Positions 7,713 through 29,829 are shown, numbered from the stretch's first letter. The stretch is 32,000 nt of DNA from an uncultured Syntrophobacterales bacterium (GCA_964519455.1 CAZFIU010000023.1:31446-63445), one strand, 5' to 3'. Translations and numbers: made by a program. The notes: generated by a model not told the origin, from the letters alone.

Positions 7713-8208
7713 CTACTCTTTCCCCAGGAACCACGTCGCCAGGTGGTTGAAGTCCTCGGGCTGGTCCAGCCAGATGAAGTGGCTGGCCTTGTCGAAGATG
7801 TGCATCTGGGCGTTGGGGATGCTCTTGTAGAGGTCGTTCCAGCGGGCCGAAAGCTCCATCAGGTGGTCCAGGTACTCCTCGGTCACCATGTCCTTGTTGT
7901 AAACGAAGGCCCCGACGTACTTGCGCTGCACTTTGTTGTCTCCTTCGGGAAGGGTCGGCGCCCCTGCGAAACGGTTTCCCTGACGTGGTTCCCAGTACAC
8001 TGGCCGGCGAGGTTGACCGGGCCGATTCCCAAGGTCTCGATGAAGTTCAGCACGTGGTCCGCCCGCACCCGGATGTGGCTCAGCTCGTCGAGGTTCCTTG
8101 GCGGGTCGGTGTAGCCGTGGCCCAGTTCGTCGATGGCGAAGACGTGGAACCGTCGACCGTCACGAAGCGGCTCTTGAACCGGTCCGGACTGTTGAACAGG
8201 GTTTCCAT
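7713..8208 (-). pseudogene. Decayed alpha/beta-hydrolase (meta-cleavage-product hydrolase-like) gene: frameshifted, with internal deletions
   Basis: Three minus-strand frames carry consecutive pieces. Piece 1 is METLFNSPDRFKSRFVTVDG, from ATG 8208 with GGAGG upstream. Piece 2 is RRFHVFAIDELGHGYTDPP...LGIGPVNLAGQ. Piece 3 is ...YLDHLMELS..IPNAQMHIFDKASHFIWLDQPEDFNHLATWFL. The HG oxyanion region, the GxSxG serine and the Asp block are missing, and the total is about 165 codons versus about 280 expected. Confidence 0.6.
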
Positions 8209-8361
8209 GGGGATGCCTCCTCGGGGAAGTTGCCTCTCCATGCATATTACCATCTGGCGGGTCGAGGCAACCCGACGCGGGATCGGGGGAGCCGGCGGGG
8301 CCAGAGTCGCGGGACCACCGACGCGGTTGCCCAACCGGACTTCCCTTGGTTTACTTTACGG

Positions 8362-9288
8362 ATGCGCTTGACGGTTGCAGCAGCATGGCGATGCGGGTGG
8401 TTCGCGGGGCGCTGCCTGTGCCTGGCCGCCCTCGCGGGGTCTCTCCTCCTCTCCACCGCGGACGCGGGAGAAGGCCGGCTGCAACTTTCCTACCGGGCGT
8501 ACTTCGCCGGCCTCCACGCGGCCAACCTCCAGCTCGGCGTCGAGTTCGACACCGCGTCGTATGACCCGGACGCCGCCGCGTTCGATCTCGATGCGTCGGC
8601 TTACGCCGTGCGTGTGCGCTTGAAGACCACCGGGGTGGTCAAGACGCTCACCCGCTTGAAGACCACGGCCTATTCGCACGGTGCGTTTGTTTCCGGGGAC
8701 ATCGTGCCGGTCCGGGCGGGCTACAGCAGCAAGCGGTGGCGCAAGAAGCGTCTGGTCGAGTTTGGCTTCGACGAAGGAACACCGAGGATCGTGCGCACGA
8801 AGCCGCGCCGAAAGCGCGGGAATGCGCCCGCGGTGTCCCCGGTCCAGCTCAAGGGCGCCCTCGATCCCGCCGGCGCCTTGCTTGCAGTGCTTTCCGGTCT
8901 CGACGCCGGCCATGGATGCAAGTTGCGGATTCCGGTCTTTACCGGCCGCCGTCTTTACGAACTGGTGGGTGAGCCGCACGAAAGCGGAGTCGGCCGGCTG
9001 AAGGCGAGCCGGTTCTCTCCATTTGCCGGACCCACGGTCAATTGCCGCGTCCGGCTCGAGAAGAGGGCGGGTTTCAAGCAGAAATCCGGTAACCGCCAGG
9101 ACCACGACCACACCGATGTGCAACTCCATGCGGCGCGGGTATTCGACGAAACGCCGCCGGTACCGGTCCGTTTCGCCGGCGACACCGGGTACGGCTCCTT
9201 GGTCGCTTATCTCCACAGGGCGAAGCTGGACGCGGGCGGCCTCAAGAGGGAGTTGCGTCCGCGTCCGGGGAGGAAACGCAGCCGTTAG
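8362..9288 (+). CDS. Secreted DUF3108-like protein (308 aa from ATG 8362)
   Basis: MRLTVAAAWRCGWFAGRCLCLAALAGSLLLSTADA is a signal peptide. The following beta-rich pattern (LQLSYRAYFAGLHAANLQLGVEF ... DPAGALLAV ... IPVFTGRRLYELVG ... GSLVAYL) resembles DUF3108 proteins. The family call is from memory only. Confidence 0.5.
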   Translation: MRLTVAAAWRCGWFAGRCLCLAALAGSLLLSTADAGEGRLQLSYRAYFAGLHAANLQLGVEFDTASYDPDAAAFDLDASAYAVRVRLKTTGVVKTLTRLKTTAYSHGAFVSGDIVPVRAGYSSKRWRKKRLVEFGFDEGTPRIVRTKPRRKRGNAPAVSPVQLKGALDPAGALLAVLSGLDAGHGCKLRIPVFTGRRLYELVGEPHESGVGRLKASRFSPFAGPTVNCRVRLEKRAGFKQKSGNRQDHDHTDVQLHAARVFDETPPVPVRFAGDTGYGSLVAYLHRAKLDAGGLKRELRPRPGRKRSR

Positions 9289-9306: not shown

Positions 9307-9474
9307 TCAGGGAAAGAAGCCCAGTTTCAAGAGCAAAGCCACGATGGTTGGCAGAAAGCTGAACACCGCCAGCTTCAGCACCGCGACGTCGCGTTTCACG
9401 ATGGCGATGTCCCCCTCCAGTACAGCCTTTAACTCGGCAAGGTCTTGTTTGCCGGCGAGATTCTCAGGTTGCAC
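9307..9474 (-). CDS. Small tail-anchored coiled-coil protein resembling the C-terminal half of DUF1640 proteins (55 aa from GTG 9474), possibly a fragment
   Basis: The sequence ENLAGKQDLAELKAVLEGDIAIVKRDVAVLKLAVFSFLPTIVALLLKLGFFP shows the repeated (D/E)(I/L)AxLK heptads plus a terminal TM helix seen in DUF1640. This stretch has lower GC than its surroundings. The start is uncertain and the long N-terminal part of the 127-aa track ORF looks non-coding. Confidence 0.3.
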   Translation of the reverse strand: MQPENLAGKQDLAELKAVLEGDIAIVKRDVAVLKLAVFSFLPTIVALLLKLGFFP

Positions 9475-10642
9475 GAGAACTTTAACCCTTTCGGGTTGCC
9501 TCGCAGGACTTCTGCTGCTGGCGGTCGGTGCGGGCGCCTCGGCCGCTGACCGGAATTTCTCGCAGTATCCTGGTTTCGCCGAGTACTTTGTCGCGCATCC
9601 TCCCGCACCGGCCGCCGGGCCGGCCGACCAAGCGCTGGCCCGGCGCCACGCGCCGCGTTTCCACCTGCCCGCGGGCCATGAAGGGCCCATCGACTTCTAC
9701 CGCGACTACATCGCCCACGGTTACCTGGTGACCGGCGACGGCGTCCGCATCGACGGTCCCACGCCCGCGGACCTGAACCGCTACCGCGACGACGTCCGCG
9801 CCGAGTTCACGCACGTGCCCGGCGACGGCCGGCCGCATCCCGTGGTCTACGCCGCGGTGGAGCGCACCGGCTTGTGGGCGCCGCGGCAAGATGGACAGGC
9901 GCCCGAGGAGTTCACCGTCGTCACCTACCACCTGGTCTTCCGCGTGAGCGGCCTGCCCGCGGCGCTGCCCCTGGCGTTCGCCCTCCCGCTACGGCTCGTG
10001 GCGGACCTGGACGACTGGCACCAACTCGACCACTACACCGCCGCATTCGTGGTGCTGGACGCGGCCGAGCGTCCCGTGGCCCTCACGCTGCAGCAACACA
10101 ACTACCTGCGCACCTACCTGGTGGGCGAATCGGTGGAGTTGGGAAGCGACGGACGGTTCGACATCGACGTCGCCATCCGCTCGAACGAGTTGTACCCGCA
10201 CGCGCCCGGCCGCACCGTGCGGCGGGCCGTGCGGTTTCTGAACTCCGAAGCCAGGGCCTTCATGATGGGATTCGGCGAGCGGCCGACCATGTCCGCGGAC
10301 GACGTCACCGAGCCGGACCGCAGCGTCGACTACAAGATGGAGTTCCTGCCCGGCGCCGATGCCTTCTATTCCTTCCACGGCTTCCTGGGCGAACGCCGCC
10401 GCCTCCCCGGCCGCGACGGCCCGCCCGGCGCGCGCTACAACACCCTCCCGCAACTCAAGCCGCTGCCCGCCCAGATTCTCGACGGCTATTGGCGCCACGG
10501 CAACGAAGGCGACTGGACGCGATACCGGCGAAGCCGTAAGAACGGCACCGACCGCGCCGGCTTCGCCCGTTCCCAGGTAGCGGTCTTCCACTACAACCTG
10601 GTGTGCCTGCGCCGCGGGCGGCAGGGCTGTACTCTTCAGTAG
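9449..10642 (+). CDS. Hypothetical secreted protein, no family recognised (397 aa from TTG 9449; ATG 9401/9407 also possible)
   Basis: It is a long ORF with GC3-rich codon usage and a predicted signal peptide, ...RTLTLSGCLAGLLLLAVGAGASA/ADRN. No canonical start exists between 9452 and the hydrophobic core, so the start must lie at or before 9449. Confidence 0.55.
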   Translation: MPARFSGCTRTLTLSGCLAGLLLLAVGAGASAADRNFSQYPGFAEYFVAHPPAPAAGPADQALARRHAPRFHLPAGHEGPIDFYRDYIAHGYLVTGDGVRIDGPTPADLNRYRDDVRAEFTHVPGDGRPHPVVYAAVERTGLWAPRQDGQAPEEFTVVTYHLVFRVSGLPAALPLAFALPLRLVADLDDWHQLDHYTAAFVVLDAAERPVALTLQQHNYLRTYLVGESVELGSDGRFDIDVAIRSNELYPHAPGRTVRRAVRFLNSEARAFMMGFGERPTMSADDVTEPDRSVDYKMEFLPGADAFYSFHGFLGERRRLPGRDGPPGARYNTLPQLKPLPAQILDGYWRHGNEGDWTRYRRSRKNGTDRAGFARSQVAVFHYNLVCLRRGRQGCTLQ

Positions 10643-10825: not shown

Positions 10826-12244
10826 CTACCCCTGAAACGCCGTCGCCACCACGAGATACAGCGTCGTTCCCAGGAGGTCGTTGAACGCGGTCACCAGCGG
10901 GCCGGCGGCGACGGCGGGGTCGCGGTTGAGCTTGTAGAAGACGATGGGCTGGACGGTGCCGACACAGGCGGCGATGGTGACGGATATGACCATGCCGATG
11001 AGCACGGCGAGGGAGAGCTGGAGGATGTCGGGAGTGCCCATGTTGATGAGGTAGCTGGCGGCGGCGGTGATCAGGCCGCAGCTTGCGCCCAGGACCAGGC
11101 CGGTGGTGGCTTCGTAGAGGATGACCGAGAAGACGCGCTGGAGCGAGAGGGTGCCCAGGGCGATGGCGCGCACCACGAGGGTCGAGGACTGGAGCCCCAC
11201 GGCGCCGGCGGTGGCGATGATGACCGGCAGGAACGCGGCCAGGAGCGCCATCTTCTCGAAGGTCTCCACGAAGACCTTGGAGATCACCAGGGCCACCACG
11301 AGCCCCAGCAGCACGGTGGTCACGACCCACGAGAAGCGTTCACCCACGCGCTTGAACACGGAGTCGCGGGCCAGGTTGATGGACTCGCTCTCGACGCCGG
11401 CGATGGCGTAGATGTCCTTGCTGGCTTCCTCCTCGATGACGTCCACCACGTCGTCGATGGTGACGCGGCCCACGAGCCGGCCCTGGTCGTCCACCACGGG
11501 AACCGTGACGAAGTCGTACTTCTTCAGGACGCGGGCGACCTCGTCCTGCGGCATCGCCACCGGAACGGAGATTACCGGCCGCTCCATGATGTTGGCGACG
11601 GATTCGTCCGGGCGCGCCAACACCAGGTTGCTGAGGGGCAGGATGCCGGTGACGCGCCGTTCGACGTTCACCACGAAGACGTCGTGGACCTCGGGCACGT
11701 CGTCCTGGGCCCGGCGGATGATCCCGATGGCCTGCTCCACGGTGGCGTACTGCGGCACCGACACGTACTCCGTCTGCATGATGCCGCCGGCGCTGTCCGG
11801 CGGGTAGTCCAGCAGGTCGCCGATTTCCTCCGCCAGCTCCGACGGCATCTCGGCCAGGACCGTGGGGGTGCGCTCTTCCGGCAGGGTCTCGATCAGGTCC
11901 GCGGCATCGTCGGTGTCCAGCTCCTCCACGAGCCCGGCCAGTTGCCGGTCCGAGAGGTCCGCCACCAGTTCGTCGCGCGCCTCCGGCGAGACGAGGCTCA
12001 GGACCGCCGAGGCGGTCTCCTGGGACAGCAGCCCGAATGCCCGTTGCCGCACCCGCGGTTCGTCGAGCTGATCCAGCAACTCCGCGATGTCGGCGGGATG
12101 GAAATCGGCCAGAAGCCGGCGCACGTCGTCGTCGCGGCCCAGCCCGGTCCACATGACGATGTTCTCGAGCGCCACTTCGCGCGGCAACGGACCCGCGGAT
12201 GCATCCACGGGCGGTTCCGGTGCTTCTGGAGTCAATTGCTGCAT
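10826..12244 (-). CDS. mgtE: Magnesium transporter MgtE
   Basis: It has the MgtE N-domain (HPADIAELLDQL), a CBS pair (IMQTEYVSVPQYATVEQAI ... VDDQGRLVGRVTIDDVVDVIEEE) and the C-terminal 5-TM MgtE channel domain (DPAVAAGPLVTAFNDLLG). Confidence 0.9.
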   Translation of the reverse strand: MQQLTPEAPEPPVDASAGPLPREVALENIVMWTGLGRDDDVRRLLADFHPADIAELLDQLDEPRVRQRAFGLLSQETASAVLSLVSPEARDELVADLSDRQLAGLVEELDTDDAADLIETLPEERTPTVLAEMPSELAEEIGDLLDYPPDSAGGIMQTEYVSVPQYATVEQAIGIIRRAQDDVPEVHDVFVVNVERRVTGILPLSNLVLARPDESVANIMERPVISVPVAMPQDEVARVLKKYDFVTVPVVDDQGRLVGRVTIDDVVDVIEEEASKDIYAIAGVESESINLARDSVFKRVGERFSWVVTTVLLGLVVALVISKVFVETFEKMALLAAFLPVIIATAGAVGLQSSTLVVRAIALGTLSLQRVFSVILYEATTGLVLGASCGLITAAASYLINMGTPDILQLSLAVLIGMVISVTIAACVGTVQPIVFYKLNRDPAVAAGPLVTAFNDLLGTTLYLVVATAFQG

Positions 12245-12288: not shown

Positions 12289-14382
12289 TCAATCTTCCAG
12301 CGCCCGGTTGGCGTCGAGCGGGGAGCCCAACACGGAATAGGTCTCTTCCTGGGAGCGCACCGGCGCTTGGCCGTTGCGGGCGATCCGCTCCGAAGTGCCG
12401 TCGGGCAGGACGTTCCACGCCTTGGTGTTGTCGCGCAGTTGCAGGGAGAGCACCTCGTCGATGGTCCTTTGCAGTCCGGGCTCCAGCACCGGGAAGGCCA
12501 CCTCGACGCGACGGTCGAGGTTTCGCTGCATCCAGTCCGCCGACGCCAGGAGATAGTCGGGGTCGCCGCCGTTGGCGAAGTGGTACACGCGGGCGTGCTC
12601 CAGGTAGCGGTCTATGATGGAGCGGACGCGGATGTTCTCGGAGAGCCCCTGCACTCCCGGACGCAGGCAGCAGATGCCGCGCACGATGAGGTCGATGGAC
12701 ACGCCCGCGCGGCTTGCCGCGTAGAGTTCGTCGATCAGGCGGGGATCCACCAGGCTGTTGAGCTTGGCGACGATGCGGCCGGGATGTCCGGCCTCGACGT
12801 GCGCCACCTCGCGCCGGATGCGGTCCACGAAAGCGTCGCGCAGGTCGGCGGGCGCCACCACGAGGTTGTTGAGCCGGCGCTGCCGGGTGTAGCCGGTAAG
12901 CAGGTTGAATACCTCGTTGACGTCCTCGCCGAAGCTGTCGCGTCCGGTGAACAGGCTGAAGTCGCTGTAGATGCTGGCGGTGCGCGCGTTGTAGTTGCCG
13001 GTTCCCAGGTGGCAGTAGCGGCGAAGCTCTCCGGCCTCACGGCGTACCACGAGACACAGTTTGCAGTGGGTCTTGAGGCCGACGATGCCGTAGACGACGT
13101 GGGCGCCCACGTTCTCCAGCGTGCGCGCCCAGGAGATGTTGGCCTCCTCGTCGAAGCGGGCCTGGAGTTCCAGCAGCACCGCCACTTCCTTGCCGGCTTC
13201 TGCCGCCTTGCCCAGCGACTGCACGATGGGCGAACTAGGGCTCACGCGGTAGAGCGTCATCTTGATGGCGAGAACGTTGGGGTCCTCCGCGGCCTCGTCC
13301 ACGAATTGGGTGACGGCGTCGAAGGAGTGATAAGGATGCTGCACCAGCACGTCCGAATGCCGGATCGTGCTCCAGATGTTCCCGCCTCCCTCGAACGCTT
13401 TCACGGGCAGCGGCGCGAACGGGCGGTCCTTGAGGTGCGGCAGGTCGAGCTTCGCGTAAAGCTCGAACAGGTCGGTAAAGGCGGTGAACCCCTTGCCCGC
13501 GTATAAGTCGTCTTGCCCGAGTTCCAACTCGTCGACGAACAGCGACAGGATGTGCTCGGGCATGTCCTCGTCGTGCTGCAGGCGTACCGCCCCGCCCATG
13601 CGCCGCTCCTTGATGCCCTGTTCGATGCTCTGGAGCAGGTCGTCGGAGCGGATCTTGGCGGTGGGCTCGTACTCCGCGTCCCGGGTCACCCTGAGCGTGT
13701 GGCAGGAAAGGATCTCGTAGCCCCGGTAGAGTTGCGGCAGGTACATCCGGAGCACTTCCTCCAGCCGGATGAACCGGTGCGCGCCGTCGTCCGAGGGAAT
13801 CTCGATGAAACGCGGGATCACGTGGGCCGGGGTGTGGACTACCGAGAGGTTGGCGTCCGGCAGCACGGAGTCGGAGTCGCTCGTCGGGTTCAGCGCGGCC
13901 ACCAGGCAAAGGCCCCGGTTCGCCAGATACGGGAACGGGTGCCCCGGGTCGATGGCCAGAGGCGTCAGCACCGGGAACACGGTGCGGTTAAAGTAGTCTT
14001 CCAGGAAGGCCTGCTGGGGCTCGGCGAGCTGCTCGCCCTGGACGATATGGACGCCTTCGTCCTCGAGGCGTGGCCGCAGCTTTTCCAGGAAGCACGCATG
14101 CTGCAAGGTGGACAGGCGGCGCGCCATCTCGGAGATGCCGTGCAGCGCCTGCGACGGGGTCAGGCCGTCGGGACCGGGCTGCGCATCGCCTTCGCGGATG
14201 CGCCGCTTCAAGCGTGCCACCCGCACCATGAAGAACTCGTCGAGGTTGGAGCTGAAGATGGCCAGGAACTTCACGCGTTCCAGCAGCGGCACCTCGTCGT
14301 TCAGTGCCTCGTCGAGCACCCGCCGGTTGAACTCCATCCACGAGAGCTCACGGTTCACGAAAAGGCTTTCTTTCTCCATCAT
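12289..14382 (-). CDS. ppk: Polyphosphate kinase 1
   Basis: 697 aa. The N-terminus FVNRELSWMEFNRRVLDEALNDEVPLLERVKFLAIFSSNLDEFFMVRV is canonical PPK1, and the PLD-like C-terminal domains are present (HCKLCLVVRRE ..., GTGNYN, RYLEHARVYHF). Confidence 0.95.
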   Translation of the reverse strand: MMEKESLFVNRELSWMEFNRRVLDEALNDEVPLLERVKFLAIFSSNLDEFFMVRVARLKRRIREGDAQPGPDGLTPSQALHGISEMARRLSTLQHACFLEKLRPRLEDEGVHIVQGEQLAEPQQAFLEDYFNRTVFPVLTPLAIDPGHPFPYLANRGLCLVAALNPTSDSDSVLPDANLSVVHTPAHVIPRFIEIPSDDGAHRFIRLEEVLRMYLPQLYRGYEILSCHTLRVTRDAEYEPTAKIRSDDLLQSIEQGIKERRMGGAVRLQHDEDMPEHILSLFVDELELGQDDLYAGKGFTAFTDLFELYAKLDLPHLKDRPFAPLPVKAFEGGGNIWSTIRHSDVLVQHPYHSFDAVTQFVDEAAEDPNVLAIKMTLYRVSPSSPIVQSLGKAAEAGKEVAVLLELQARFDEEANISWARTLENVGAHVVYGIVGLKTHCKLCLVVRREAGELRRYCHLGTGNYNARTASIYSDFSLFTGRDSFGEDVNEVFNLLTGYTRQRRLNNLVVAPADLRDAFVDRIRREVAHVEAGHPGRIVAKLNSLVDPRLIDELYAASRAGVSIDLIVRGICCLRPGVQGLSENIRVRSIIDRYLEHARVYHFANGGDPDYLLASADWMQRNLDRRVEVAFPVLEPGLQRTIDEVLSLQLRDNTKAWNVLPDGTSERIARNGQAPVRSQEETYSVLGSPLDANRALED

Positions 14383-14732
14383 GGTTCCATACCCGAAGCA
14401 GGTTACGATCGGATTAAATCTCTAGCCATCGCCACGGCGAAAACGCAAGGCATGGGAATGCACCTCTTGCCTCAGGCCATTATACATCGGCAGCAGGCCT
14501 GCCGGGCAGCACGGGGCCATGCAGGTGGCCAAGGCGGCCAAGGTGGGCAAGAAGGTGGCGGTGTTGAGAAGCAACGCTCCGCAGGTAACAGAACATCAAC
14601 AAAGACTTCGTTTTTCCGACGCAACCGCTTCATCTTGTACACACACCGACACGGTAGCCTTTTCGCTGAAAACTCCCAATCAACGAACCCGGGTTGTCTT
14701 GCCCGGGTCCGAACGACTCAGGAGGTGGCAAC

Positions 14733-15596
14733 GTGTCGAACTCGACGGAAACAGTGCCGCGGTTTTTCCGTACGGTCTGGCTGTCCGACATCCATCTCGG
14801 TTTCCGCGGCTGCAGCGCGGCTTCTCTGCTTGCATTCCTGCGTTCCGTGGAATGCGAGTTTCTCTACCTCGTCGGTGACATCATCGACATATGGTCCGTC
14901 CGCAAGCGGCCGTTCTGGCCCCAGGACCACAACAACGTTCTACGAACGATCCTCGGCAAGGCCAAGTACGGCACCAAGGTGATCTACGTCCCGGGGAATC
15001 ACGACGAGATGCTGCGCGATTACGACGGCATGGCGTTCGGCAACATCCGGATCAGCGACCGTATCGTGCACCGAAAGGCCGACGGCAAGCGGTTCCTGGT
15101 GATTCACGGCGACCAGTTCGACAGCGTGGTGCGCTCCTCCAAGGCCATCGCGCTTCTCGGCAGTCACGCGTACGACGTGCTCCTGGCCATCAATACGCGG
15201 CTCAACCTGGCACGGCGCAAGGTAGGGCTGCCCTACTGGTCGCTCGCCGGCGCCATCAAGCACAAGGTCAAGAACGCCATGCGCTACATCAGCAACTTCG
15301 AGGCGGCGGTGGCGTTTGAAGCGGCGCGCCTGGGCGTGGACGGTGTCATCTGCGGACACATCCACCGAGCCCAGATCGTTTCCCTGAACGACATCACCTA
15401 CTGCAACTGCGGAGACTGGGTGGAGAGCAACAGCGCCCTGGTGGAGCACGAGGACGGGCGGCTGGAGCTACTGGAGTGGCGGGACACTCACCGGATCGCC
15501 TTCGGAGGACAGCCGGACGAGGGTGCGTCCGTTCCGCTGCTCACCCACAACGGCGACACCCACCACAGCAACGGAGCGGCCGGAGGCCCAGCCTGA
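14733..15596 (+). CDS. Calcineurin-type metallophosphoesterase of the LpxH / PlcP (phospholipase C for lipid remodelling) clade
   Basis: GTG 14733 lies 7 nt after AGGAGG (14720..14725). All five metallophosphoesterase motifs are present: SDIHLG, LVGDIID, VPGNHDE, VIHGDQFD and CGHIHRA. The blocks W.QDHNNV and YCNCGDWVES are typical of LpxH/PlcP-like proteins. Confidence 0.75.
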   Translation: MSNSTETVPRFFRTVWLSDIHLGFRGCSAASLLAFLRSVECEFLYLVGDIIDIWSVRKRPFWPQDHNNVLRTILGKAKYGTKVIYVPGNHDEMLRDYDGMAFGNIRISDRIVHRKADGKRFLVIHGDQFDSVVRSSKAIALLGSHAYDVLLAINTRLNLARRKVGLPYWSLAGAIKHKVKNAMRYISNFEAAVAFEAARLGVDGVICGHIHRAQIVSLNDITYCNCGDWVESNSALVEHEDGRLELLEWRDTHRIAFGGQPDEGASVPLLTHNGDTHHSNGAAGGPA

Positions 15597-15668
15597 GGAT
15601 GAGCTCCGCGAGAATTCGCGCGAAAATTCTTGCCCGCGAAGCAGGGCGCGACAGGAGGAATACTACCA

Positions 15669-18083
15669 ATGGGATTGGTGGAAGCGAGTGAAGCGCTCCG
15701 GATCGGTTTGTCGTGCTCGGGACCCGGTTCCATGACGGGATGCAGCATCGAGTTGGGGGCCGCGTGGATGGCGGCTCTCGTCTTGCTGTTTGGTGCGGCC
15801 GTGCTCCTGGCGGTCAGGAAGCTTTACCGTGGACTGGTTACTGTGCGCGCGCGGGCGTTCGGGCCGGCGCTCTCCCGGCGCCTTGCCCACTGGGTGCGTT
15901 CGAGGGACTACCCCGCGGATGAGTTCTTCAGCGCCGACGGTGCGGAACCGGGTTGGGCGCAGCGCCGCGAGAACGCGCTGGAGCGGCTTGCCGGCCACTT
16001 CCGCGCGCGTTCCGCCAAGGCCATTGCGTGGAGCGGCGCCATCCGCGAGAACTTCTCGGACCTGCGCTTCACCGACGCCGGGCGGGTGCCGTTTCCGTTC
16101 GCGCGGCTGATGCGGGAGAAGTTCAACCTCTGCTCGGTGGTGACCGAGTCCGACGGACCGCGTCTGCGCGACCTTGACGGCAACTGGTCCCTCGACCTCA
16201 GCGGCTCCTACGGCGTCAACGTGGCGGGACAGGAGCGCTACAAGCAGTGGATGCGCAAGGGCATGGAACGGGTCAAGGACCTCGGCGCGGTGCTGGGACC
16301 GCTTCATCCCCTCGTGGCCGAGAACATCGACGTGCTCAAGAGGATCTCCGGGCTGGACGAAGTGTCGTTCCACATGAGCGGCACCGAGGCGGTGATGTCC
16401 GCCGTGCGGCTGGCGCGCTTCAACACCCGGCGCAAGCTCATCGTGTGCTTCTCCGGTGCCTACCATGGCTGGTGGGACGGCGTGCAGCCCGGGCTGGGGA
16501 GCGAGCGCGACTTGAGGGACTGTCTCACCCTCAAGGACATGGACCCCGCATCGCTGGCCGCCATCCGCCGGCGCTCCGGAGAGATCGCGGGCGTGCTGGT
16601 AAACCCGGTGCAGTCGTTCCATCCGAACTCGCCCCCGCCGAGCGACGCATTGTTGCTCACCAGCAGCGTACGCAAGATGTGCGAGGAGCATGCCGCGTAC
16701 CAGCGGTGGTTGCACGAGTTGCGCGAAGTCTGCGCCGCGTGTGGCATCCCGTTGATCTTCGACGAGGTCTATTCCGGTTTCCGGCTGGCTCCCGGTGGCG
16801 CGCAGGAGTTCTTTGACGTCCAGGCCGACATGACGGTCTACGGCAAGACCGTGGGCGGCGGCATGCCCATCGGCGCGGTGTGCGGCCGGAAGGATCTCAT
16901 GCGGCGCACGGACCCCGACCACCCCATGCGCCTGGCCTACGTCATCGGCACGTTCGCCGCGCATCCCGTGGTGATGGGCGCCATGAACGAGTTCCTGCGC
17001 TGGGTTACAGGCCCGGAGGCGGGGGCCGCCTACAATGAGGCAAACCACCGTTGCAGCGAATGGGCGCGGGAGACCAACCGGGAACTGGCGCATGCCGGCC
17101 TGCCGCTGCGGGTCGTGAACCTTGCCACCGTGTGGACCGTACTGTTCCAGGAGCCGGGCCGCTACAACTGGCTGCTGCAATACTACCTGCGGGCCGAAGG
17201 GGTCACCCTGAGCTGGGTCGGCACCGGCCGCTGCATCAGCAACATGGGCTTCAGTCAGGAGGACTACCGCGAACTCAAAGGCAAGCTGGTGAACGCCGCC
17301 CGCGCCATGCACCAGGACGGCTGGTGGCTCACGGAACAGCAGCAGCCCAGCCGCGACCGAAAGATGCGGAGGGGACTGGTGCACGAGCTTCTGGGCACGC
17401 TGGTGCCCGTGCCGAAGCCCTTGCGGGTCTTCTGCGCCGAGGTCATGCGCCGCAAGCACGACGACCACGAGGCGTCCCACAGCCATCCGCTGAACCAGTT
17501 CGGCCACATCCTGAGTTCCAGCGTTTTCATCTACTGCTACTTCCTGATATTCGCGAACCTCACCACAGCGGTGTCCTTCAGCCTCGCCGCGCTGCTGGTG
17601 CGGCAACTGGGCCACGCGGTCATCGAACCGCCGTGCCACGACAAGGAAGAGTTGCTGCTGGGCTACAACACTCGCAACAAGACCATCATCGTCCTGGCCT
17701 ACGTGCTGATTCCGTTCGTCAACCTGGCGGGCGTCGACGCATGGACCTGGGCCGCGGCCGTCGACACGTTGCCCGCCATCGCCAAGCAGTGGTTCGGCTT
17801 GACGCTGATCGTGGTCCTGGGCCGTGTGGCCTATCTCACCTGGCTGCACGACTTCCGCATCTCCATGGTGTGGTTCATCAAGCTCATCACCGATCCGCTC
17901 ACGGACCTCATCGCCTACGTGCCGCGGTCGCTGGCGGAAGCGCGCGCCTTCCTGCCGCCGTACTCCAGCGTAGAGTCGTACAAGCCCGGTTACGCCGTGG
18001 AGGGATTGTCGTCGGGCGACGAGTGGATCGAGGCATGCGACCAAGAGGAAGCGGGCCGGCAATCAAGGGACGCGCGCCGGTGA
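15669..18083 (+). CDS. Membrane fusion protein: N-terminal TM helix, class III PLP aminotransferase (glutamate-1-semialdehyde aminomutase-like), and a C-terminal multi-TM DUF962/Mpo1-like domain
   Basis: ATG 15669 lies 10 nt after AGGAGG. The TM helix is AAWMAALVLLFGAAVLLAV. Aminotransferase blocks are DLDGNWSLDLSGSYGVNVAG, SFHMSGTEAVMSAVRLAR, IFDEVYSGFRLAPGG and the Schiff-base lysine motif YGKTVGGGMPIGA. The C-terminal domain carries HSHPLNQFGH (the H-x4-N-x3-H spacing) and LGHAVIEPP, the DUF962 signatures, within 5-6 predicted TM helices. Confidence 0.8.
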   Translation: MGLVEASEALRIGLSCSGPGSMTGCSIELGAAWMAALVLLFGAAVLLAVRKLYRGLVTVRARAFGPALSRRLAHWVRSRDYPADEFFSADGAEPGWAQRRENALERLAGHFRARSAKAIAWSGAIRENFSDLRFTDAGRVPFPFARLMREKFNLCSVVTESDGPRLRDLDGNWSLDLSGSYGVNVAGQERYKQWMRKGMERVKDLGAVLGPLHPLVAENIDVLKRISGLDEVSFHMSGTEAVMSAVRLARFNTRRKLIVCFSGAYHGWWDGVQPGLGSERDLRDCLTLKDMDPASLAAIRRRSGEIAGVLVNPVQSFHPNSPPPSDALLLTSSVRKMCEEHAAYQRWLHELREVCAACGIPLIFDEVYSGFRLAPGGAQEFFDVQADMTVYGKTVGGGMPIGAVCGRKDLMRRTDPDHPMRLAYVIGTFAAHPVVMGAMNEFLRWVTGPEAGAAYNEANHRCSEWARETNRELAHAGLPLRVVNLATVWTVLFQEPGRYNWLLQYYLRAEGVTLSWVGTGRCISNMGFSQEDYRELKGKLVNAARAMHQDGWWLTEQQQPSRDRKMRRGLVHELLGTLVPVPKPLRVFCAEVMRRKHDDHEASHSHPLNQFGHILSSSVFIYCYFLIFANLTTAVSFSLAALLVRQLGHAVIEPPCHDKEELLLGYNTRNKTIIVLAYVLIPFVNLAGVDAWTWAAAVDTLPAIAKQWFGLTLIVVLGRVAYLTWLHDFRISMVWFIKLITDPLTDLIAYVPRSLAEARAFLPPYSSVESYKPGYAVEGLSSGDEWIEACDQEEAGRQSRDARR

Positions 18084-18120
18084 ACGCGCCGGCGCGTGGT
18101 GCGCGGTCACACGGTTCGTT

Positions 18121-18675
18121 TTGAATGCGGACAAGCCGATGGACGTCTGGAGTTTCTTGGTCGCCGCCTTCTGCCTCAGCCTGGAGCGCATCTGTTACGC
18201 TTTCGTGTGGCGCTTCCCCGAGGCCTTCTGCAGGATGTGCGCTTTGCCATGGATGCGTTTCCTCGGAGAGCCCATCGACGTCCTGCGAAAGCTCTTCCTG
18301 GGCTTCAAGGCCATCCAGATCAGCGTGTTCCTCGGCTGGTGCTATCTCTACGGAGAAGGCTCCCTGAGCCCCTTGAACGAAAGTGTCTTGTGGCTGAGCG
18401 TCGGCACCGCGCTGGTGATCGCGGGCCAGGTGCTCAACCTGAGCGTGTTCCTGCGCCTGGGCCAGGTGGGCGTCTTCTACGGTGCCAAGTTCGGTTACGA
18501 TGTCCCCTGGTGCCGGTCCTTCCCCTTCTCGATCCTCCGCCACCCTCAATATGTCGGTACGGTCCTGTCCATCTGGGGCTTCTTCCTCGCCATGCGTTTT
18601 CCCCACGACGACTGGTACATCCTGCCCGCGCTGGAAACGTTCTACTACATCGCCGGCTCTCAACTGGAGCAATAG
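18121..18675 (+). CDS. Integral-membrane SAM methyltransferase of the PEMT / ICMT superfamily (phospholipid N-methyltransferase-like)
   Basis: About 184 aa with about 4 TM helices. The C-terminal signature FPFSILRHPQYVGTVLSIWGFF (RHPxYxG) is characteristic of PEMT/Opi3 and ICMT-type enzymes. The start is either TTG 18121 or ATG 18139. Confidence 0.7.
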   Translation: MNADKPMDVWSFLVAAFCLSLERICYAFVWRFPEAFCRMCALPWMRFLGEPIDVLRKLFLGFKAIQISVFLGWCYLYGEGSLSPLNESVLWLSVGTALVIAGQVLNLSVFLRLGQVGVFYGAKFGYDVPWCRSFPFSILRHPQYVGTVLSIWGFFLAMRFPHDDWYILPALETFYYIAGSQLEQ

Positions 18676-18744
18676 GCTCATTCCCGCGAAACAAGCTGTG
18701 TCAAGACCCCAAACGAACACGGAATGGCACGGCCACCCCGAACC

Positions 18745-18788
18745 GTCATTCCCGCGAAAGCGGGAATCCAGGGGTGGGGGGGGTGTGG
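18745..18788 (+). repeat. Palindromic repeat unit, copy 1 (GNRA-capped hairpin plus G-rich tail)
   Basis: The unit is GTCATTCCCGC-GAAA-GCGGGAATCCAGGGGTGGGGGGGGTGTGG. It has an 8-bp stem (ATTCCCGC/GCGGGAAT, 18748..18767) with a GAAA loop. A truncated left arm (TCATTCCCGCGAAA) also occurs at 18678..18691. Confidence 0.85.
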
Positions 18789-18793
18789 CGACC

Positions 18794-19936
18794 TCATTGC
18801 CCGGCCTCACCCCGCCTGGATTCCCGCTTCCGCGGGAATGACTCATTGGGGTGTAGCGGAATGACATCGCCTGGGAAGCGGGAATCCAGGTGGGGCGGAG
18901 GCGGGGGAAGGGGACGCACGGCCTTCTGCCAGAAGCCCGGCGCAACGGGCTCCAACAGCGACACGAACCGCCGGGTCCACTCCAGCCAAGTGTGCTGCCG
19001 TGCGTAGGCCACACAGTCGGCGGGATCGACCTCCAATGCGCCGAGAACGGCTGCGCGAAGGTCCGGGTGCAGGACGCCGGTGATGCCGTTCCGCACCACG
19101 TCCAACGGTCCGGTGGCCGGAAACGCCGCCACCGGAACGCCGCAGGCCATGGCCTCCAGCATGACGAGTCCGAAGGTGTCCGTCAGGCTCGGGAAGACGA
19201 ACACGTCGGCGGCGGCCACGTGCGCCGCCAACTCCTCGCCCAGTTTCTGCCCGACGAACCGGACGTCCGGGTAACGCGAGCGCAGGCTCCGCAGATCCGG
19301 GCCGTCCCCCACGACGTACTTGGTGCCGGGAAGGTCCAGATCCAGAAATGCCTCGATGTTCTTCTCCACCGCCACGCGCCCCATGTACATGGCCAGCGGC
19401 CGCGCGCCCGGCAGATAGGACTTGGGTCCCGGCTTGAAAAGGTCCGTGTCCACGCCTCGGGCCCAGATGGCGAGGTTGTCGAAGCCGTTGCGACGCAAAT
19501 GCTCGGCCAGGGAGCGGGTCGCCACCAAGGTTCGCGTAGCGGCACCGTGGTACCGCCGCAGGTAGCGGTAGGACCAGCTCGCCGGAATCGGCGCGCGCGC
19601 GCGGATGTATTCGGGGAAGAGGGTGTGGAAACACGTGGTGAAGGGAATGCCGAGGCGGCAGCAATAGGAGCGCGCCGCGTGTCCGATGGGTCCTTCGGTG
19701 GAAATGTGCACGGCCTCGGGCTTGAATTCCCGCAGGATGCGCCGGACCCCGCGGCCGGGAAAGAGAGCCAGGCGAATGGACCGGTAGGTAGGGCAGGAGA
19801 CGGTGGCGAAATCCAGCGGCGTCACGAAGCGCGTTTCGTGCCCGAGTTTTTCCAGGTGCGCGCGCGTCTGCTGCAACGTGCGTACTACGCCGTTGACCTG
19901 CGGTTCCCAAGCATCGGTGACGACCGCGATTCTCAT
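18794..19936 (-). CDS. GT4-family (GT-B) glycosyltransferase, Agt/SqdX-like lipid glycosyltransferase
   Basis: MRIAVVTDAWEPQVNGVVRTL is the N-terminus typical of DAG-glycolipid GT4 enzymes. The C-terminal domain has the E-x7-E region (FPSLTDTFGLVMLEAMACGVPV). The last 35-40 codons (..PPPPPHLDSRFPGDVIPLHPNESFPRKRESRRGEAGQ) are encoded by repeat copies 2 and 3. Confidence 0.85.
   Translation of the reverse strand: MRIAVVTDAWEPQVNGVVRTLQQTRAHLEKLGHETRFVTPLDFATVSCPTYRSIRLALFPGRGVRRILREFKPEAVHISTEGPIGHAARSYCCRLGIPFTTCFHTLFPEYIRARAPIPASWSYRYLRRYHGAATRTLVATRSLAEHLRRNGFDNLAIWARGVDTDLFKPGPKSYLPGARPLAMYMGRVAVEKNIEAFLDLDLPGTKYVVGDGPDLRSLRSRYPDVRFVGQKLGEELAAHVAAADVFVFPSLTDTFGLVMLEAMACGVPVAAFPATGPLDVVRNGITGVLHPDLRAAVLGALEVDPADCVAYARQHTWLEWTRRFVSLLEPVAPGFWQKAVRPLPPPPPHLDSRFPGDVIPLHPNESFPRKRESRRGEAGQ
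18805..18842 (-). repeat. Palindromic repeat unit, copy 2 (inverted orientation)
   Basis: The reverse complement reads GTCATTCCCGC-GGAA-GCGGGAATCCAGGCGGGGTGAGG. The stem is the same (18820..18839), with a GGAA loop. Confidence 0.85.
18858..18907 (+). repeat. Degenerate or rearranged repeat unit, copy 3
   Basis: GGAATGAC (the inverted left end) is followed by GAAGCGGGAATCCAGGTGGGGCGGAGGCGGGGG. The right arm and G-rich tail are conserved but the left arm is disrupted. Confidence 0.6.
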
Positions 19937-26073: not shown

Positions 26074-26595
26074 TTACTCCCTTGCCTTCCTTTCCCTGAA
26101 CAGCGCCACCGTGTGGCGCCGCGTGAACACCAGTTCGCCCTCCGCGTCGCGCACCTCCTCCACCTGCGTGACGTAGATCCCCACGCCCAGCCTGCCCTCG
26201 CGCGCCGTGATGTCGACGATACGGCTCTGGCAGGTCAGCGGTTCGCCCATGTGCACGGGTTTCAGCCACTCGGTCTCGCTGCCCGCGTTGCGCACGTTGG
26301 TGTAGTCCGCGGGCACGGGAAGCTGCCGGCGCACGTCGAAGGACGACGCCTTCCCCTCCGGCTCCTTGATGCTGAAGGGTGTCCAGCCCACCAGGATGGG
26401 CGGCAGAAGACGGCCCTTGTATCCCGCGGAGCGGGCGAAGTCGTCGTCGAGCCACAGCGGGTTCGTGTCGCCGGTGACGTCGACGTAGCGGCGGACGTCC
26501 GACGCGCTCAACGTCTCGAGCGCGCGCACCGGGCCTTTCAAGCCGATGCACCGGCGCAGTTCGTCGGAGATGATGGTTTCGGGGGATTCGTTCAT
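26074..26595 (-). CDS. MaoC-dehydratase N-terminal-type hotdog protein (FAS1-like, non-catalytic partner type)
   Basis: 173 aa. The blocks SDVRRYVDVTGDTNPLWLDDDFARSAGYKGRLLPPILV and GEPLTCQSRIVDITAREGRLG are typical of the N-terminal half of two-domain or heteromeric MaoC hydratases. Confidence 0.75.
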   Translation of the reverse strand: MNESPETIISDELRRCIGLKGPVRALETLSASDVRRYVDVTGDTNPLWLDDDFARSAGYKGRLLPPILVGWTPFSIKEPEGKASSFDVRRQLPVPADYTNVRNAGSETEWLKPVHMGEPLTCQSRIVDITAREGRLGVGIYVTQVEEVRDAEGELVFTRRHTVALFRERKARE

Positions 26596-26622
26596 GGCAC
26601 CGCGCCACGCTCGGGGCGAACG

Positions 26623-27846
26623 TTATACCAACGCTCCCGTGCCCGCCAGCTCCGTCAACTCGCCTTCCGGGACGTCCAGCCATTCCCGCAGCACCTCCCG
26701 CGTGTGCTGTCCCAGACACGGGGCGGGCGTTGCCGCCGGCAGGGTGCTCTCCGAGAACTCGAAGGGCAGCGCCGTCGTCAGCATGGAGCCCACCCTGGGC
26801 TCGGCCATGCGCTTGTAGGCCCTGGACGGCGAACCGTCCTCCGCCAGGTCCTGGACCCGTCGCATGCGCGCCGCGAAGACGCCGGTCCGCCGCAACCGGG
26901 CCTCCACCTCCGTGCTCTCAAGCCCGCGGGTCCAGGCCTCGATGCGTTCGTCGATCTCGTCGTGATGGCGCATCCGTCCCGGCAGGGTGGCGAAGCGAAC
27001 GTCGTCCGCCAGGCCAGGTTCCGAGACTCCCTCCTCCACCGCCTCGGCCAGCGCGCGCCACTGCGCGTCGTCGTGGACGCTGACGGCGCACCACTCGTCC
27101 TTGCCCGCGCAACGATACACCCCTTGCGGGGCGAAGCGGGCCGAGCGGTTGCCCATCCGCTCCGGATTCCGCCCGTTCACCGCGCCGAACAGCAGCAGCG
27201 GCGCGATCATCGAGACGCTGCACTCGAACTGGCCCATGTCCAGGTGGATGCCCGCACCGGTCGCTTCACGCTCGGTCAGCGCGCCGATGACGGCGTAGCA
27301 GGTGTGGAGCCCGCCGATGTAGTCGTTCCAGGAGTTCGAGATGGCCGTGGGCGGGTCGCCCTCGGCGCCCGTGACCTGCATGAGCCCGGCGGCGCCCTGG
27401 AGGTTCATGTTCATGCTGGTCCAGGCACGCCGCGGACCGCTGTGGCCGTAGCCCGACATGCTGGCGAACACCAGCCGTGGGTTGGCCGCCCTGAGGGACT
27501 CGTACCCCAGGCCCAGCCGGTCCATGACCCCCGCGCTGAAGTTCTCCACCACCACGTCCGCGGCCTCGGCCAGGCGCCGCGCGACATCGTGCCCCGCGGG
27601 GTGCTTCAGGTCGATGCTCACCGAGCGCTTGTTGCGGTTGGTGTTCAGATAGGAAGCGTGGCGCCCGTCCGGGTGCCGGTAGGACGATGGCCACGGGAAG
27701 TCCGGGTGCCTGCTGCTCTCCACCCGCACCACGTCCGCGCCGAGATCCGCCAGCAGCCGCGTGCAGAACGGCGCCGCCAGCACGTGGCCGAAGTCGAGGA
27801 CGCGGATGCCCGAAAGGGGAGGCGCATCAGGTTTCACAGTCGTCAT
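26623..27846 (-). CDS. Family III CoA-transferase (CaiB/BaiF/Frc family), paralog 2
   Basis: PLSGIRVLDFGHVLAAPFCTRLLADLGADVVRVE is the canonical N-terminus. The catalytic-Asp block WNDYIGGLHTCYAVIGAL matches the family pattern D-x3-G-x-H-x5-G-x-AL. Confidence 0.9.
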   Translation of the reverse strand: MTTVKPDAPPLSGIRVLDFGHVLAAPFCTRLLADLGADVVRVESSRHPDFPWPSSYRHPDGRHASYLNTNRNKRSVSIDLKHPAGHDVARRLAEAADVVVENFSAGVMDRLGLGYESLRAANPRLVFASMSGYGHSGPRRAWTSMNMNLQGAAGLMQVTGAEGDPPTAISNSWNDYIGGLHTCYAVIGALTEREATGAGIHLDMGQFECSVSMIAPLLLFGAVNGRNPERMGNRSARFAPQGVYRCAGKDEWCAVSVHDDAQWRALAEAVEEGVSEPGLADDVRFATLPGRMRHHDEIDERIEAWTRGLESTEVEARLRRTGVFAARMRRVQDLAEDGSPSRAYKRMAEPRVGSMLTTALPFEFSESTLPAATPAPCLGQHTREVLREWLDVPEGELTELAGTGALV

Positions 27847-27937
27847 TCCCCATTGCGTGGCTCATGCTACGATGCGAGGAAGCACGTTTCAAACCCGCGG
27901 TCGCCTGTGACTCCACTCCCTTGGTCCAGTCCCGTCG

Positions 27938-27968
27938 TTGACAGGCAACCACCCGAAACCTATATAAT
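27938..27968 (+). promoter_or_regulatory. Near-consensus sigma70 promoter for the dioxygenase operon
   Basis: TTGACA (27938..27943), a 17-nt spacer, then TATATAAT (27961..27968). It lies about 60 nt upstream of ATG 28027 in the 180-bp divergent intergenic region. Confidence 0.5.
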
Positions 27969-28026
27969 CGCCACCAATCACCCCGTACATCCACCGACCC
28001 GAGCCGAAAGGTTAAAGGTGAACGGA

Positions 28027-29304: not shown

Positions 29305-29817
29305 GTGACCGATCACGATCTATGGCATGAGATCAACCGCTTCCTCGTCCATGAGGCGCGGCTGCTGGACGACCGCGCCTTCGAGGAGTGGCTGGACCTG
29401 TTCACCGACGACGTCGTCTACTGGATGCCGGAGCGGACCAACCCGTGGGAAAGCACCGATCCCGCGGACAGCGTGTCCAAGCCCGGCGAGCTGGCGCTCT
29501 TCGAGGAGACCAAGGAGACGCTGCGCACCCGGGTGGCCCGCCTCGCCACCGGCATGGCGTGGTCCGAGGTGCCGCCTTCGCGCACGCGCCACTTGGTCAC
29601 CAACGTCCAGGTGGAGCCCGGCGAGAAAGACTCCGAGTTGCGCGTGCGTTCGTATTTCATGGTGTACCGCACCCAGCTCGAGCACAGCCAGGACGTTTTC
29701 GTTGGCGAGCGGGACGACCTGTTGCGGAGGGTCGGCGACCAGTGGAAGATCGCCCGCCGCACCATCCTGCTCGACCAGGTGGTGCTGCAGTCGCCGAACC
29801 TGAGCATCTTCTTCTAG
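29305..29817 (+). CDS. Aromatic ring-hydroxylating dioxygenase, small (beta) subunit (NTF2-like)
   Basis: GTG 29305 lies 4 nt after GGAGG. It is 170 aa. The blocks FLVHEARLLDDRAFEEWLDLFTDDVVYWMP and the C-terminal R.ILLDQ......NLSIFF are typical of beta subunits. Confidence 0.85.
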   Translation: MTDHDLWHEINRFLVHEARLLDDRAFEEWLDLFTDDVVYWMPERTNPWESTDPADSVSKPGELALFEETKETLRTRVARLATGMAWSEVPPSRTRHLVTNVQVEPGEKDSELRVRSYFMVYRTQLEHSQDVFVGERDDLLRRVGDQWKIARRTILLDQVVLQSPNLSIFF

Positions 29818-29829
29818 GGGGGTGACGAG

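Follow-up and report, generated by a model that had tools for sequence, protein, structure and literature searches.

A 32,000-nt stretch of DNA from an uncultured Syntrophobacterales bacterium (GCA_964519455.1 CAZFIU010000023.1:31446-63445), hereafter called the window, carries a locus of four consecutive genes of the membrane-lipid type; all coordinates below are counted from the first letter of the window. The open reading frames (ORFs) lie at 14733-15596 (+), 15669-18083 (+), 18121/18139-18675 (+) and 18794-19936 (-), and encode a PlcP-like (LpxH-like) metallophosphoesterase, a fusion of an aminotransferase with an Mpo1-like membrane domain, a PEMT-family methyltransferase and an Agt-like family 4 glycosyltransferase (GT4), respectively. 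An initial annotation had proposed this gene set as a route to a phosphorus-free amino lipid. Profile searches confirmed the predicted domains of all four genes, the Mpo1-like label being the weak one. Building on the gene content of the locus, its conservation, the fusion or adjacency of two of its enzymes and its association with Pho boxes and phosphate genes, we propose that the locus is probably a Pho-regulated lipid-remodelling module, which would oxidise, transaminate and N-methylate a diacylglycerol-derived head group to yield a phosphorus-free amino lipid whose identity, like that of its precursor, we infer.

The product of the first gene matches Metallophos (PF00149, E 3e-13), and all five metal-binding motifs can be read in it (DIH19, GD48, GNHD88, HGD and GHIH208), in agreement with its earlier description as an LpxH/PlcP-type enzyme. 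It aligns colinearly with the solved LpxH 5k8k over residues 15-240 (24.5 bits). An identity as LpxH is ruled out by the equivalog scores, which lie far under their cut-offs (39 bits vs 190 for TIGR01854 and 38 bits vs 134 for NF003743); as judged from its sequence, the protein is LpxH-like in layout but is not an LpxH orthologue. Orthologues with 47-70% identity are found in plcP-btaB-btaA operons (loci L020, L024, L025 and L032 of the set described below) and in a plcP-GT4 operon (L036). Both plcP-btaBA and plcP-agt operons are published arrangements for PlcP (PMC4796936, PMC9239053). We infer that the phosphoesterase may act as a phospholipase C that releases diacylglycerol.

The second ORF starts at 15669, 9 nt downstream of an AGGAGG ribosome-binding site, and encodes a transmembrane (TM) anchor, a conserved helical linker, a class-III aminotransferase and a polytopic Mpo1-like domain. 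The TM helix spans residues 31-49 (15759-15815, +; Kyte-Doolittle peak 2.51) and is followed by an Arg/Lys-rich segment, and the aminotransferase domain is predicted to be cytoplasmic. The helix is also present in a full-length structure model of the fusion, built from a 20-sequence alignment; this model was poor (pLDDT 62) and was set aside. The aminotransferase core (approximately residues 135-560; 16071-17348, +) matches PF00202 with 104 bits against a cut-off of 30.5 (E 1e-29). Its pyridoxal phosphate (PLP) lysine (YGKTVGGGMP) and cofactor aspartate (IFDEVYSGFR) are invariant in the fusion homologues and align with the AMT aminotransferase domain of the mycosubtilin synthase MycA. A TM-anchored PLP aminotransferase, as had been predicted, is thus encoded.

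Among solved structures, the MycA AMT domain (6kfm, 168 bits) is the best match to this enzyme, ahead of the glutamate-1-semialdehyde (GSA) aminomutases (GSAM). Sugar C-6' aminotransferases of the GenB type, which use sugar 6'-aldehydes, are also detectable as relatives, and a search of the plasmid collection gave, as next relatives, AMT domains in Ralstonia non-ribosomal peptide synthetase/polyketide synthase (NRPS/PKS) genes, with 32% identity over ~465 residues. The closest relatives work on lipid-like carbonyls (a beta-ketoacyl intermediate for MycA AMT) or on sugar 6'-aldehydes (GenB), which we count in favour of the proposed module. An identity as HemL (glutamate-1-semialdehyde 2,1-aminomutase) is ruled out by the equivalog scores, 166 bits for TIGR00713 (cut-off 527) and 172 bits for NF000818 (cut-off 398). 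Most of the 770-aa fusion proteins bear the automatic Joint Genome Institute (JGI) name 'glutamate-1-semialdehyde 2,1-aminomutase', a propagated misannotation, because the HemL equivalog score is missed by such a wide margin.

The C-terminal part of the fusion (17424-17963, +) is a six-helix membrane domain with a conserved His/Asp/Glu set and is a putative Fe(II) oxygenase. Its polytopic nature stands as annotated. The DUF962/Mpo1 label is less secure: the window copy scores 14.6 bits against PF06127 (E 0.036) and a stand-alone copy from Bradyrhizobium 21 bits, both under the cut-off of 24. All 30 fused and stand-alone homologues of the domain that were tested nevertheless match PF06127 (best E 8e-6) and no other family consistently, and some database homologues bear a precomputed PF06127 match or the name DUF962. 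Invariant residues include His35, His39, His48, His84, Glu88 and Asp93, within the patterns DDH..H..NQ..H, RQxGH..EP..D.KE and K..TDP..D..Y. The domain model, built from 59 sequences, has six helices (pLDDT 81), and a fold search of the PDB with it returned no solved structural relative, only noise (best E 0.9). The subfamily is compact: at 50% identity it has 875 representatives in a set of 1.84 billion proteins, and the bulk of DUF962 was not reached from it. The domain is therefore probably a distant Mpo1-like member, and its chemistry is putative. Yeast Mpo1 (DUF962) is an Fe(II)-dependent 2-hydroxy fatty acid dioxygenase (PMC10398889).

The third ORF opens at a TTG (18121), and the ATG at 18139 yields a protein of 178 aa, as in the homologues. 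This protein (18139-18675, +) matches PF04191 with 52 bits against a cut-off of 25 and has the RHPQYVG motif, which lies in the RHPxY region that binds S-adenosylmethionine (SAM). The PEMT/ICMT-type membrane methyltransferase of the initial annotation is thereby confirmed, with its substrate a prediction; it is not an OlsG equivalog, since it has no NCBIfam match. The fourth gene (18794-19936, -) is convergent with the other three, as described earlier, and encodes a GT-B fold GT4 enzyme with matches to Glyco_transf_4 (PF13439, E 1e-22) and Glycos_transf_1 (PF00534, E 6e-18). No NCBIfam equivalog was reached by this protein, the best being GlcN_PG_synth with 84 bits against a cut-off of 480. 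Between PEMT and GT4 lies a repetitive extragenic palindromic (REP)-like repeat, TCATTCCCGCGAAAGCGGGAATCC, in three to four copies (18678-18920), which fills the intergenic region and overlaps the GT4 ORF at its 3' end. These repeats encode the last ~40 residues of the GT4 protein (…FPRKRESRRGEAGQ), a stretch missing from the Nitrospira orthologues, which have 337 aa compared with 380 aa here.

Conservation and two architectures of the module

The genes of the locus recur together in many phyla, as the initial annotation had suggested checking. With one genome scanned per GTDB species, a relative was found in at least 595 species, and a database search with the fusion gave at least 8000 matches; among the matches listed, full-length fusion homologues are 64-85% identical across phyla. 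They occur in Binatia, Nitrospira (N. moscoviensis NSP M-1 and Nitrospira sp. KM1), Rokubacteria/Methylomirabilota, Vicinamibacterales and some Gammaproteobacteria. For comparison of gene neighbourhoods we used 84 loci (numbered with the prefix L), of which 80 came from genomes and three from contig look-ups, the window being the remaining one. The closest Binatia relative of the window is L005, from a metagenome-assembled genome (MAG) of Candidatus Binatia, with the same gene order and proteins that are 92-96% identical; the window itself was assigned to a Candidatus Binatia bacterium.

Two architectures were observed. In the fused architecture (~33 loci) the aminotransferase and the Mpo1-like domain form one protein; in the split architecture (~51 loci) the aminotransferase stands alone, with ~560 aa and 45-50% identity. 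The gene for an Mpo1-like protein of ~200 aa, 25-31% identical to the C-terminal domain of the fusion, adjoins the split-type aminotransferase gene in 44 of these ~51 loci, usually in convergent orientation. Carriers of the split type include Bradyrhizobium tropiciagri, Methylobacterium, Roseomonas, Pelomonas, many Burkholderiales and Sphingomonas, as well as Xanthobacteraceae, Acidobacteriaceae, Myxococcota, Planctomycetota and Zetaproteobacteria. The same layout is present on a Sphingomonas parapaucimobilis plasmid, where it is annotated asd / aminotransferase / hypothetical protein / methyltransferase. As the two halves are fused in some loci and encoded by adjacent genes in others (a Rosetta stone relation), the arrangement indicates that both activities work together.

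Moreover, when the ORFs within ~8 kb of the aminotransferase were clustered into families, every recurrent partner was a membrane-lipid head-group enzyme. GT4 is the commonest neighbour (57/84 loci) and occurs as two types. The Agt-like type of the window is usually convergent; its orthologues (52-73% identity) adjoin the module in Nitrospira, Gammaproteobacteria and Alphaproteobacteria, including plcP-GT4 operons. The second type, ~35% identical to the window GT4 and distantly GpgS-like (158 bits vs cut-off 480), is located directly upstream in the GT4-fusion-PEMT operons of Binatia and Rokubacteria; operons of the module are often translationally coupled, as in GT4-fusion-PEMT with overlaps of 4 bp. 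The PlcP-like phosphoesterase was found in 27 loci, and six loci have btaA (DUF3419, E 2e-111) with a btaB-like gene, in plcP-btaB-btaA operons. No BtaA (DUF3419) was found in the window among the 25 large ORFs selected by GC content at third codon positions (GC3), all of which were scanned against Pfam.

Methyltransferases of two kinds accompany the module. PEMT is present in 18 of the 84 loci, exclusively of the fused type, and is thus optional; in these loci it lies directly 3' of the fusion, and the stop codon of one gene often overlaps the start codon of the next (L003, L004 and L007). A class-I methyltransferase occurs in 19 split loci and is closest to the Legionella-type PmtA (161 bits). 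The presence of unrelated methyltransferase families, PEMT and PmtA-like, in the same slot argues that the product is an N-methylated lipid amine. Split loci also contain a Psd-like decarboxylase (43/84 loci, split type only), usually divergent from the aminotransferase gene, which scores 165 bits against the phosphatidylserine (PS) decarboxylase equivalog TIGR00163 (cut-off 112) and keeps the GST self-cleavage motif.

Two further families were noted beside the module. Five loci (L040, L045, L049, L072 and L083) encode a protein of ~906 aa inside aminotransferase-GT4-psd-like-Mpo1-like operons. The C-terminal two-thirds of this protein are GT4, and its N-terminal region, which has no Pfam match, was read by eye as a PHP-like phosphoesterase; if so, this PHP::GT4 fusion may combine PlcP-like and Agt-like functions. 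Eight split loci (L036, L037, L041, L044, L045, L055, L062 and L066) have a polytopic membrane protein of ~283 aa and of unknown function, with no Pfam or NCBIfam match.

Association with phosphate genes and Pho boxes

The initial annotation had placed the locus in a phosphate-economy neighbourhood, pointing to the adjacent ppk1. That gene turned out to lie within 8 kb of the module in only ~5 of the 84 loci (the window, L005, L019, L022 and L076) and is context of the module, not a core member. The link to phosphate itself was borne out by other neighbours. The plcP-like/fusion operon of Nitrospira sp. KM1 lies divergently to pstSCAB-phoU, and phoU, pstB, pstS or two phoB-like regulators are found close by in other loci of Nitrospira. 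Genes for a glycerophosphodiester phosphodiesterase (GDPD) and a phytase-like protein adjoin the module in a Binatia locus (L003), and two loci from Xanthobacteraceae (L050 and L080) have phoU between plcP and the psd-like gene.

Pho boxes are strongly enriched upstream of the module genes. The E. coli/alphaproteobacterial box CTGTCAT-N4-CTGTCAT was searched for in 300-bp windows upstream of these genes (90.7 kb). With up to 3 mismatches, 52 boxes were observed, compared with 4.2 +/- 2.1 (maximum 9) in shuffled sequences and 10 in the reversed-sequence control, an enrichment of ~12-fold over the shuffles. With up to 2 mismatches, 10 were observed, compared with 0.37 in shuffles and 1 in the reversed control. 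The remaining 1.15 Mb of the loci contained 63 matches, a ~10-fold lower density. The boxes are located 5' of the divergent aminotransferase/psd-like pair, the Mpo1-like gene, GT4 and plcP (the last in L036, L044, L050, L077 and L080), and also 5' of phoU, which served as a positive control; predicted boxes include CTGTCATGAATCTGTCAG in L075 and CTGACATCTGATTGTCAT in L079.

In the promoter spacer of the window, a direct repeat GTAAC-N6-TCAAC with an 11-bp phase (14585-14600, +) is a candidate Pho-box-like element and a lead only. The corresponding pattern GTAAC-N6-TYAAC has this single match in the 32-kb window, with 0.02 expected. In other loci it precedes the plcP-like gene (L005, L027 and L031), pstS (L027 and L031) and a phoB-like regulator (L004); as these same sites had in part served to define the pattern, the test is post hoc. 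Nothing useful came of a strict search of the Nitrospira and Binatia upstream regions for three hexamers with an 11-bp phase. Five Nitrospira loci (L002, L004, L006, L027 and L031) share an upstream block ~200 bp 5' of the plcP-like gene, reading …A.A.TTCAC… and then GAAACA..GC.....TA..CT, and pstS upstream regions have direct repeats of the form GAGTTAAC-N3-GAGTTAAC. These elements may represent a lineage-specific Pho box and promoter.

The spacer that holds this repeat (14383-14732) is 350 bp long and, as annotated, separates the locus from the divergent ppk1 and mgtE and is lower in GC (56.9% vs 65.8% for the window). Polyphosphate kinase 1 is encoded at 12289-14382 (-), with four PP_kinase domains (E 1e-39 to 2e-73), and mgtE lies at 10826-12244 (-). 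No sigma-70 consensus promoter was found in the spacer. A hairpin with a 7-bp stem at 14687-14708 (+) does exist as described, and consists of two copies of the self-complementary CCCGGG; its region is no more stable in folding than shuffled sequence (z = -0.13, with 91 of 200 shuffles equal to it), and a role as a regulatory element was therefore ruled out. The hairpin is kept only in part in L005. In the same spacer, between ppk1 and the plcP-like gene, L005 has an insertion of ~215 bp relative to the window (L005 positions ~6505-6720) with perfect 28-bp terminal inverted repeats (TGTCGCGTCCCGCAAATAAGTGGCATAA) and a CTAG duplication at its edges, resembling a miniature inverted-repeat transposable element.

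No tie to the module was seen in the rest of the window, which encodes transporters, Rieske oxygenases, a CoA-transferase and others. Just past mgtE, a protein of 432 aa (9344-10642), which has a signal-like N-terminus and matches no Pfam family, and a DUF3108 protein (8098-9288) are encoded, both conserved with the Binatia MAG only. A 1046-aa ORF at 26113-29253 has Rieske and ring-hydroxylase alpha domains that start only at residue ~676; it is probably over-extended or has an unknown N-terminal region, because no Pfam family matches its first ~675 residues and GC3 is lower (0.76). A beta subunit and then a second alpha subunit (29305-31059) follow downstream.

Proposed pathway and competing explanations

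Taken together, synteny, a phosphoesterase distinct from LpxH and the Pho link support, as a hypothesis, the route to a phosphorus-free amino lipid that the initial annotation had sketched. By homology and context, the PlcP-like enzyme would strip the phosphorylated head group from phospholipids to leave diacylglycerol, and the Agt-like GT4 would convert it to glycosyl- or glucuronosyl-diacylglycerol. The Mpo1-like domain, as a putative Fe(II)/O2 enzyme, would then introduce a carbonyl into the lipid-bound head group by oxidation, perhaps together with a decarboxylation like that of Mpo1; the source of the carbonyl would most likely be a sugar or hydroxy-acid function of the diacylglycerol-derived glycolipid. 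The fused, membrane-tethered aminotransferase could turn this carbonyl into a primary amine at once, the fusion favouring hand-over of a reactive aldehyde or ketone. N-methylation of the amine by the PEMT-type enzyme would give a phosphorus-free cationic or zwitterionic lipid that could stand in for phosphatidylethanolamine (PE) and phosphatidylcholine (PC).

The Psd-like decarboxylase of the split loci is not explained by the originally proposed scheme. The split version, in which a PmtA-like methyltransferase would replace PEMT, may be a variant route to the same kind of amine, and its Psd-like pyruvoyl enzyme implies a lipid-bound 2-amino-acid intermediate. We speculate that both versions could convert R-CH(OH)-COOH to R-CH2-NH2, one through a 2-oxo acid and a 2-amino acid followed by decarboxylation, and the other by direct oxidative decarboxylation followed by transamination.

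On this basis, the aminotransferase and Mpo1-like pair could be the core of a widespread, undescribed PhoB-controlled pathway to new phosphorus-free N-methylated amino glyco- or glycerolipids, a proposal in its full breadth that we place only just short of an even chance. It is carried by bacteria of soil and freshwater and by nitrifiers, among them Nitrospira, Binatia, Rokubacteria, Acidobacteriota, rhizobia, methylotrophs and Burkholderiales. As the substrate we tentatively favour a sugar head group, since no other partner is as common or as tightly linked as GT4, and we hold this choice with somewhat less assurance still. Glucuronosyl-diacylglycerol as a direct substrate of Mpo1-type chemistry was judged awkward and set aside, its C5 bearing the ring oxygen and no 2-hydroxyl being free.

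Several points weigh against the proposed pathway. The weakest element of the observation is the Mpo1-like label, under the Pfam threshold for the window copy and without a PDB relative. Canonical Mpo1 acts on a free 2-hydroxy fatty acid and not on a head group, and a pyranosiduronic acid has no free 2-hydroxyl. About one third of the loci have no GT4 within 8 kb, and L010, L017 and L018 consist of the fusion and PEMT only; the sugar may therefore not be the substrate, and diacylglycerol itself or another common lipid stays a candidate. The Psd-like gene exceeds its equivalog cut-off, and part of the split module could be plain PE/PC synthesis. The E. coli-type Pho box has no match in the window itself, and the Binatia/Nitrospira-type box, being a post hoc pattern, is a lead. 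To our knowledge, no carrier organism of the module has a known lipid product.

The points concerning GT4 and Psd also bear on a different explanation, in which the pair, the methyltransferase and the Psd-like enzyme remodel an existing amine or amino-acid lipid and no new lipid class arises. Diacylglyceryl-homoserine, the precursor of the betaine lipid diacylglyceryl-trimethylhomoserine (DGTS), or PS/PE or ornithine lipid would be converted to an isomer resembling diacylglyceryl-hydroxymethyl-trimethyl-alanine (DGTA), to a decarboxylated or deaminated derivative, or to extra PE/PC. The six loci with the fusion beside plcP-btaB-btaA agree with this, as do the Psd-like score over the TIGR00163 cut-off, the methyltransferase closest to PmtA, the several loci that lack GT4 nearby and the occurrence of N-acyl-ornithine enzymes among class-III aminotransferases. 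We nevertheless regard it as unlikely: btaA is missing from the window and from >90% of the loci, GT4 is the commonest neighbour and is in some loci embedded in the operon or translationally coupled, and making extra PE/PC under Pho control would save no phosphorus.

The strong association with Pho boxes and pst/phoU/GDPD genes would also suit a Pho-regulon scavenging or catabolic system, in which the pair, simply located among other Pho genes, would for instance oxidise and deaminate amine head groups, phosphonolipids or aminophosphonates at the membrane to obtain phosphate or nitrogen, and the combination of an aminotransferase with an oxygenase does occur in aminophosphonate catabolism. This is much less probable still, as a biosynthetic N-methyltransferase is translationally coupled to the fusion, phosphonate and C-P lyase genes are not among the recurrent neighbours, and PlcP would already have released the phosphate. 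We give the least credence, close to none, to lipid A/lipopolysaccharide (LPS) synthesis, with the phosphoesterase as LpxH, GT4 as a core glycosyltransferase and the aminotransferase making an amino sugar like ArnB. The phosphoesterase does align end to end with LpxH, and GT4 enzymes are common in LPS synthesis; its LpxH equivalog scores (39 and 38 bits) are nonetheless far from those required, the aminotransferase is AMT/GSAM-like and not DegT/ArnB-like, and the neighbours are btaAB, psd-like, pmtA-like and pst/phoU genes, with no lpx or waa among them.

Replacement of phospholipids by phosphorus-free lipids is a major microbial answer to phosphate scarcity. Only a handful of routes are known to us, namely glycolipids via Agt, Pgt or sulfoquinovosyldiacylglycerol (SQDG) synthesis, DGTS via BtaAB, and ornithine/glutamine lipids. 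A Pho-tied module of such wide distribution, which reaches Nitrospira and common rhizobia, yet contains two enzymes without an assigned role. If its product is indeed a new amine or quaternary-ammonium lipid, the module would add a missing cationic or zwitterionic member to bacterial lipid remodelling and give a first bacterial function to the DUF962/Mpo1-like subfamily and to a membrane-tethered AMT-type aminotransferase. The product would serve bacteria in place of PE/PC and may be one origin of the 'unknown aminolipids' that environmental and chemotaxonomic lipid profiles show, and the genes would provide a marker for reading environmental lipidomes. Cultured carriers (N. moscoviensis, Bradyrhizobium, Methylobacterium, Roseomonas and Sphingomonas parapaucimobilis) make the hypothesis testable.

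Relation to known systems

The closest known system is the PlcP-Agt pathway (Sinorhizobium SMc00171, Agrobacterium Atu2297, SAR11 HTCC7211, Phaeobacter MED193 and Methylosinus OB3b), which likewise has an LpxH-like phosphoesterase beside a GT4 in a Pho context (PMC4796936, PMC9239053). Unlike in that pathway, a membrane aminotransferase::Mpo1-like fusion and PEMT here sit between the pair and are co-conserved with it; the published types of plcP neighbourhood contain neither the fusion nor PEMT (PMC4796936). In the full-text literature covered, we found no description of an aminotransferase or a DUF962/Mpo1-like protein linked to PlcP, Agt or lipid remodelling. Within this literature, the PlcP/Agt half of the module is known and the aminotransferase/Mpo1-like/PEMT half is undescribed.

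Counterparts of the undescribed half come from other settings. Yeast Mpo1 belongs to the sole Pfam family matched by the Mpo1-like domain and shares with it a polytopic helical build and conserved histidines (PMC10398889), but the relation is very distant, and the compact subfamily falls short of the DUF962 bulk. The AMT domains of MycA and of the Ralstonia NRPS/PKS genes use PLP to place an amine on the carbonyl of a lipid-like substrate; in contrast to MycA AMT, the aminotransferase studied here lies outside a megasynthase, has no carrier-protein partner, is TM-tethered and is fused to a membrane domain. Conversion of an acidic or neutral sugar head group to a cationic amino sugar on a lipid has precedents in ArnA/ArnB, which lead from UDP-glucuronic acid through a 4-keto-pentose to 4-amino-4-deoxy-arabinose (Ara4N), and in gpgSDF, which makes glucosaminyl-phosphatidylglycerol (GlcN-PG) in P. 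aeruginosa (PMC12713373). These systems use an NAD-dependent decarboxylase with a DegT-type aminotransferase, or a deacetylase, whereas the module would use an O2-type membrane domain with a class-III aminotransferase, and the parallel is an analogy only.

Methylation of a lipid amine is shared with two further routes. In the PS to PE to PC route (Psd with Pmt/PEMT), N-methyltransferases of the PEMT and PmtA-like types, and a pyruvoyl decarboxylase of the Psd type as in the split loci, act on a lipid amine at the membrane. The module adds an aminotransferase and an oxygenase-like protein, neither of which takes part in PC synthesis, and is tied to phosphate-starvation genes, that is, to a condition where PC is normally degraded. 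The BtaA/BtaB pathway to DGTS resembles the module in producing a phosphorus-free N-trimethylated diacylglycerol lipid under Pho control with methylation as the last step, and btaAB lies beside the fusion in some loci. It differs in that BtaA (DUF3419) is not encoded in the window, where the methyltransferase is of the PEMT type and not of the BtaB type. The amine of DGTS comes from aminocarboxypropyl transfer from SAM; here, it would come by transamination of a carbonyl.

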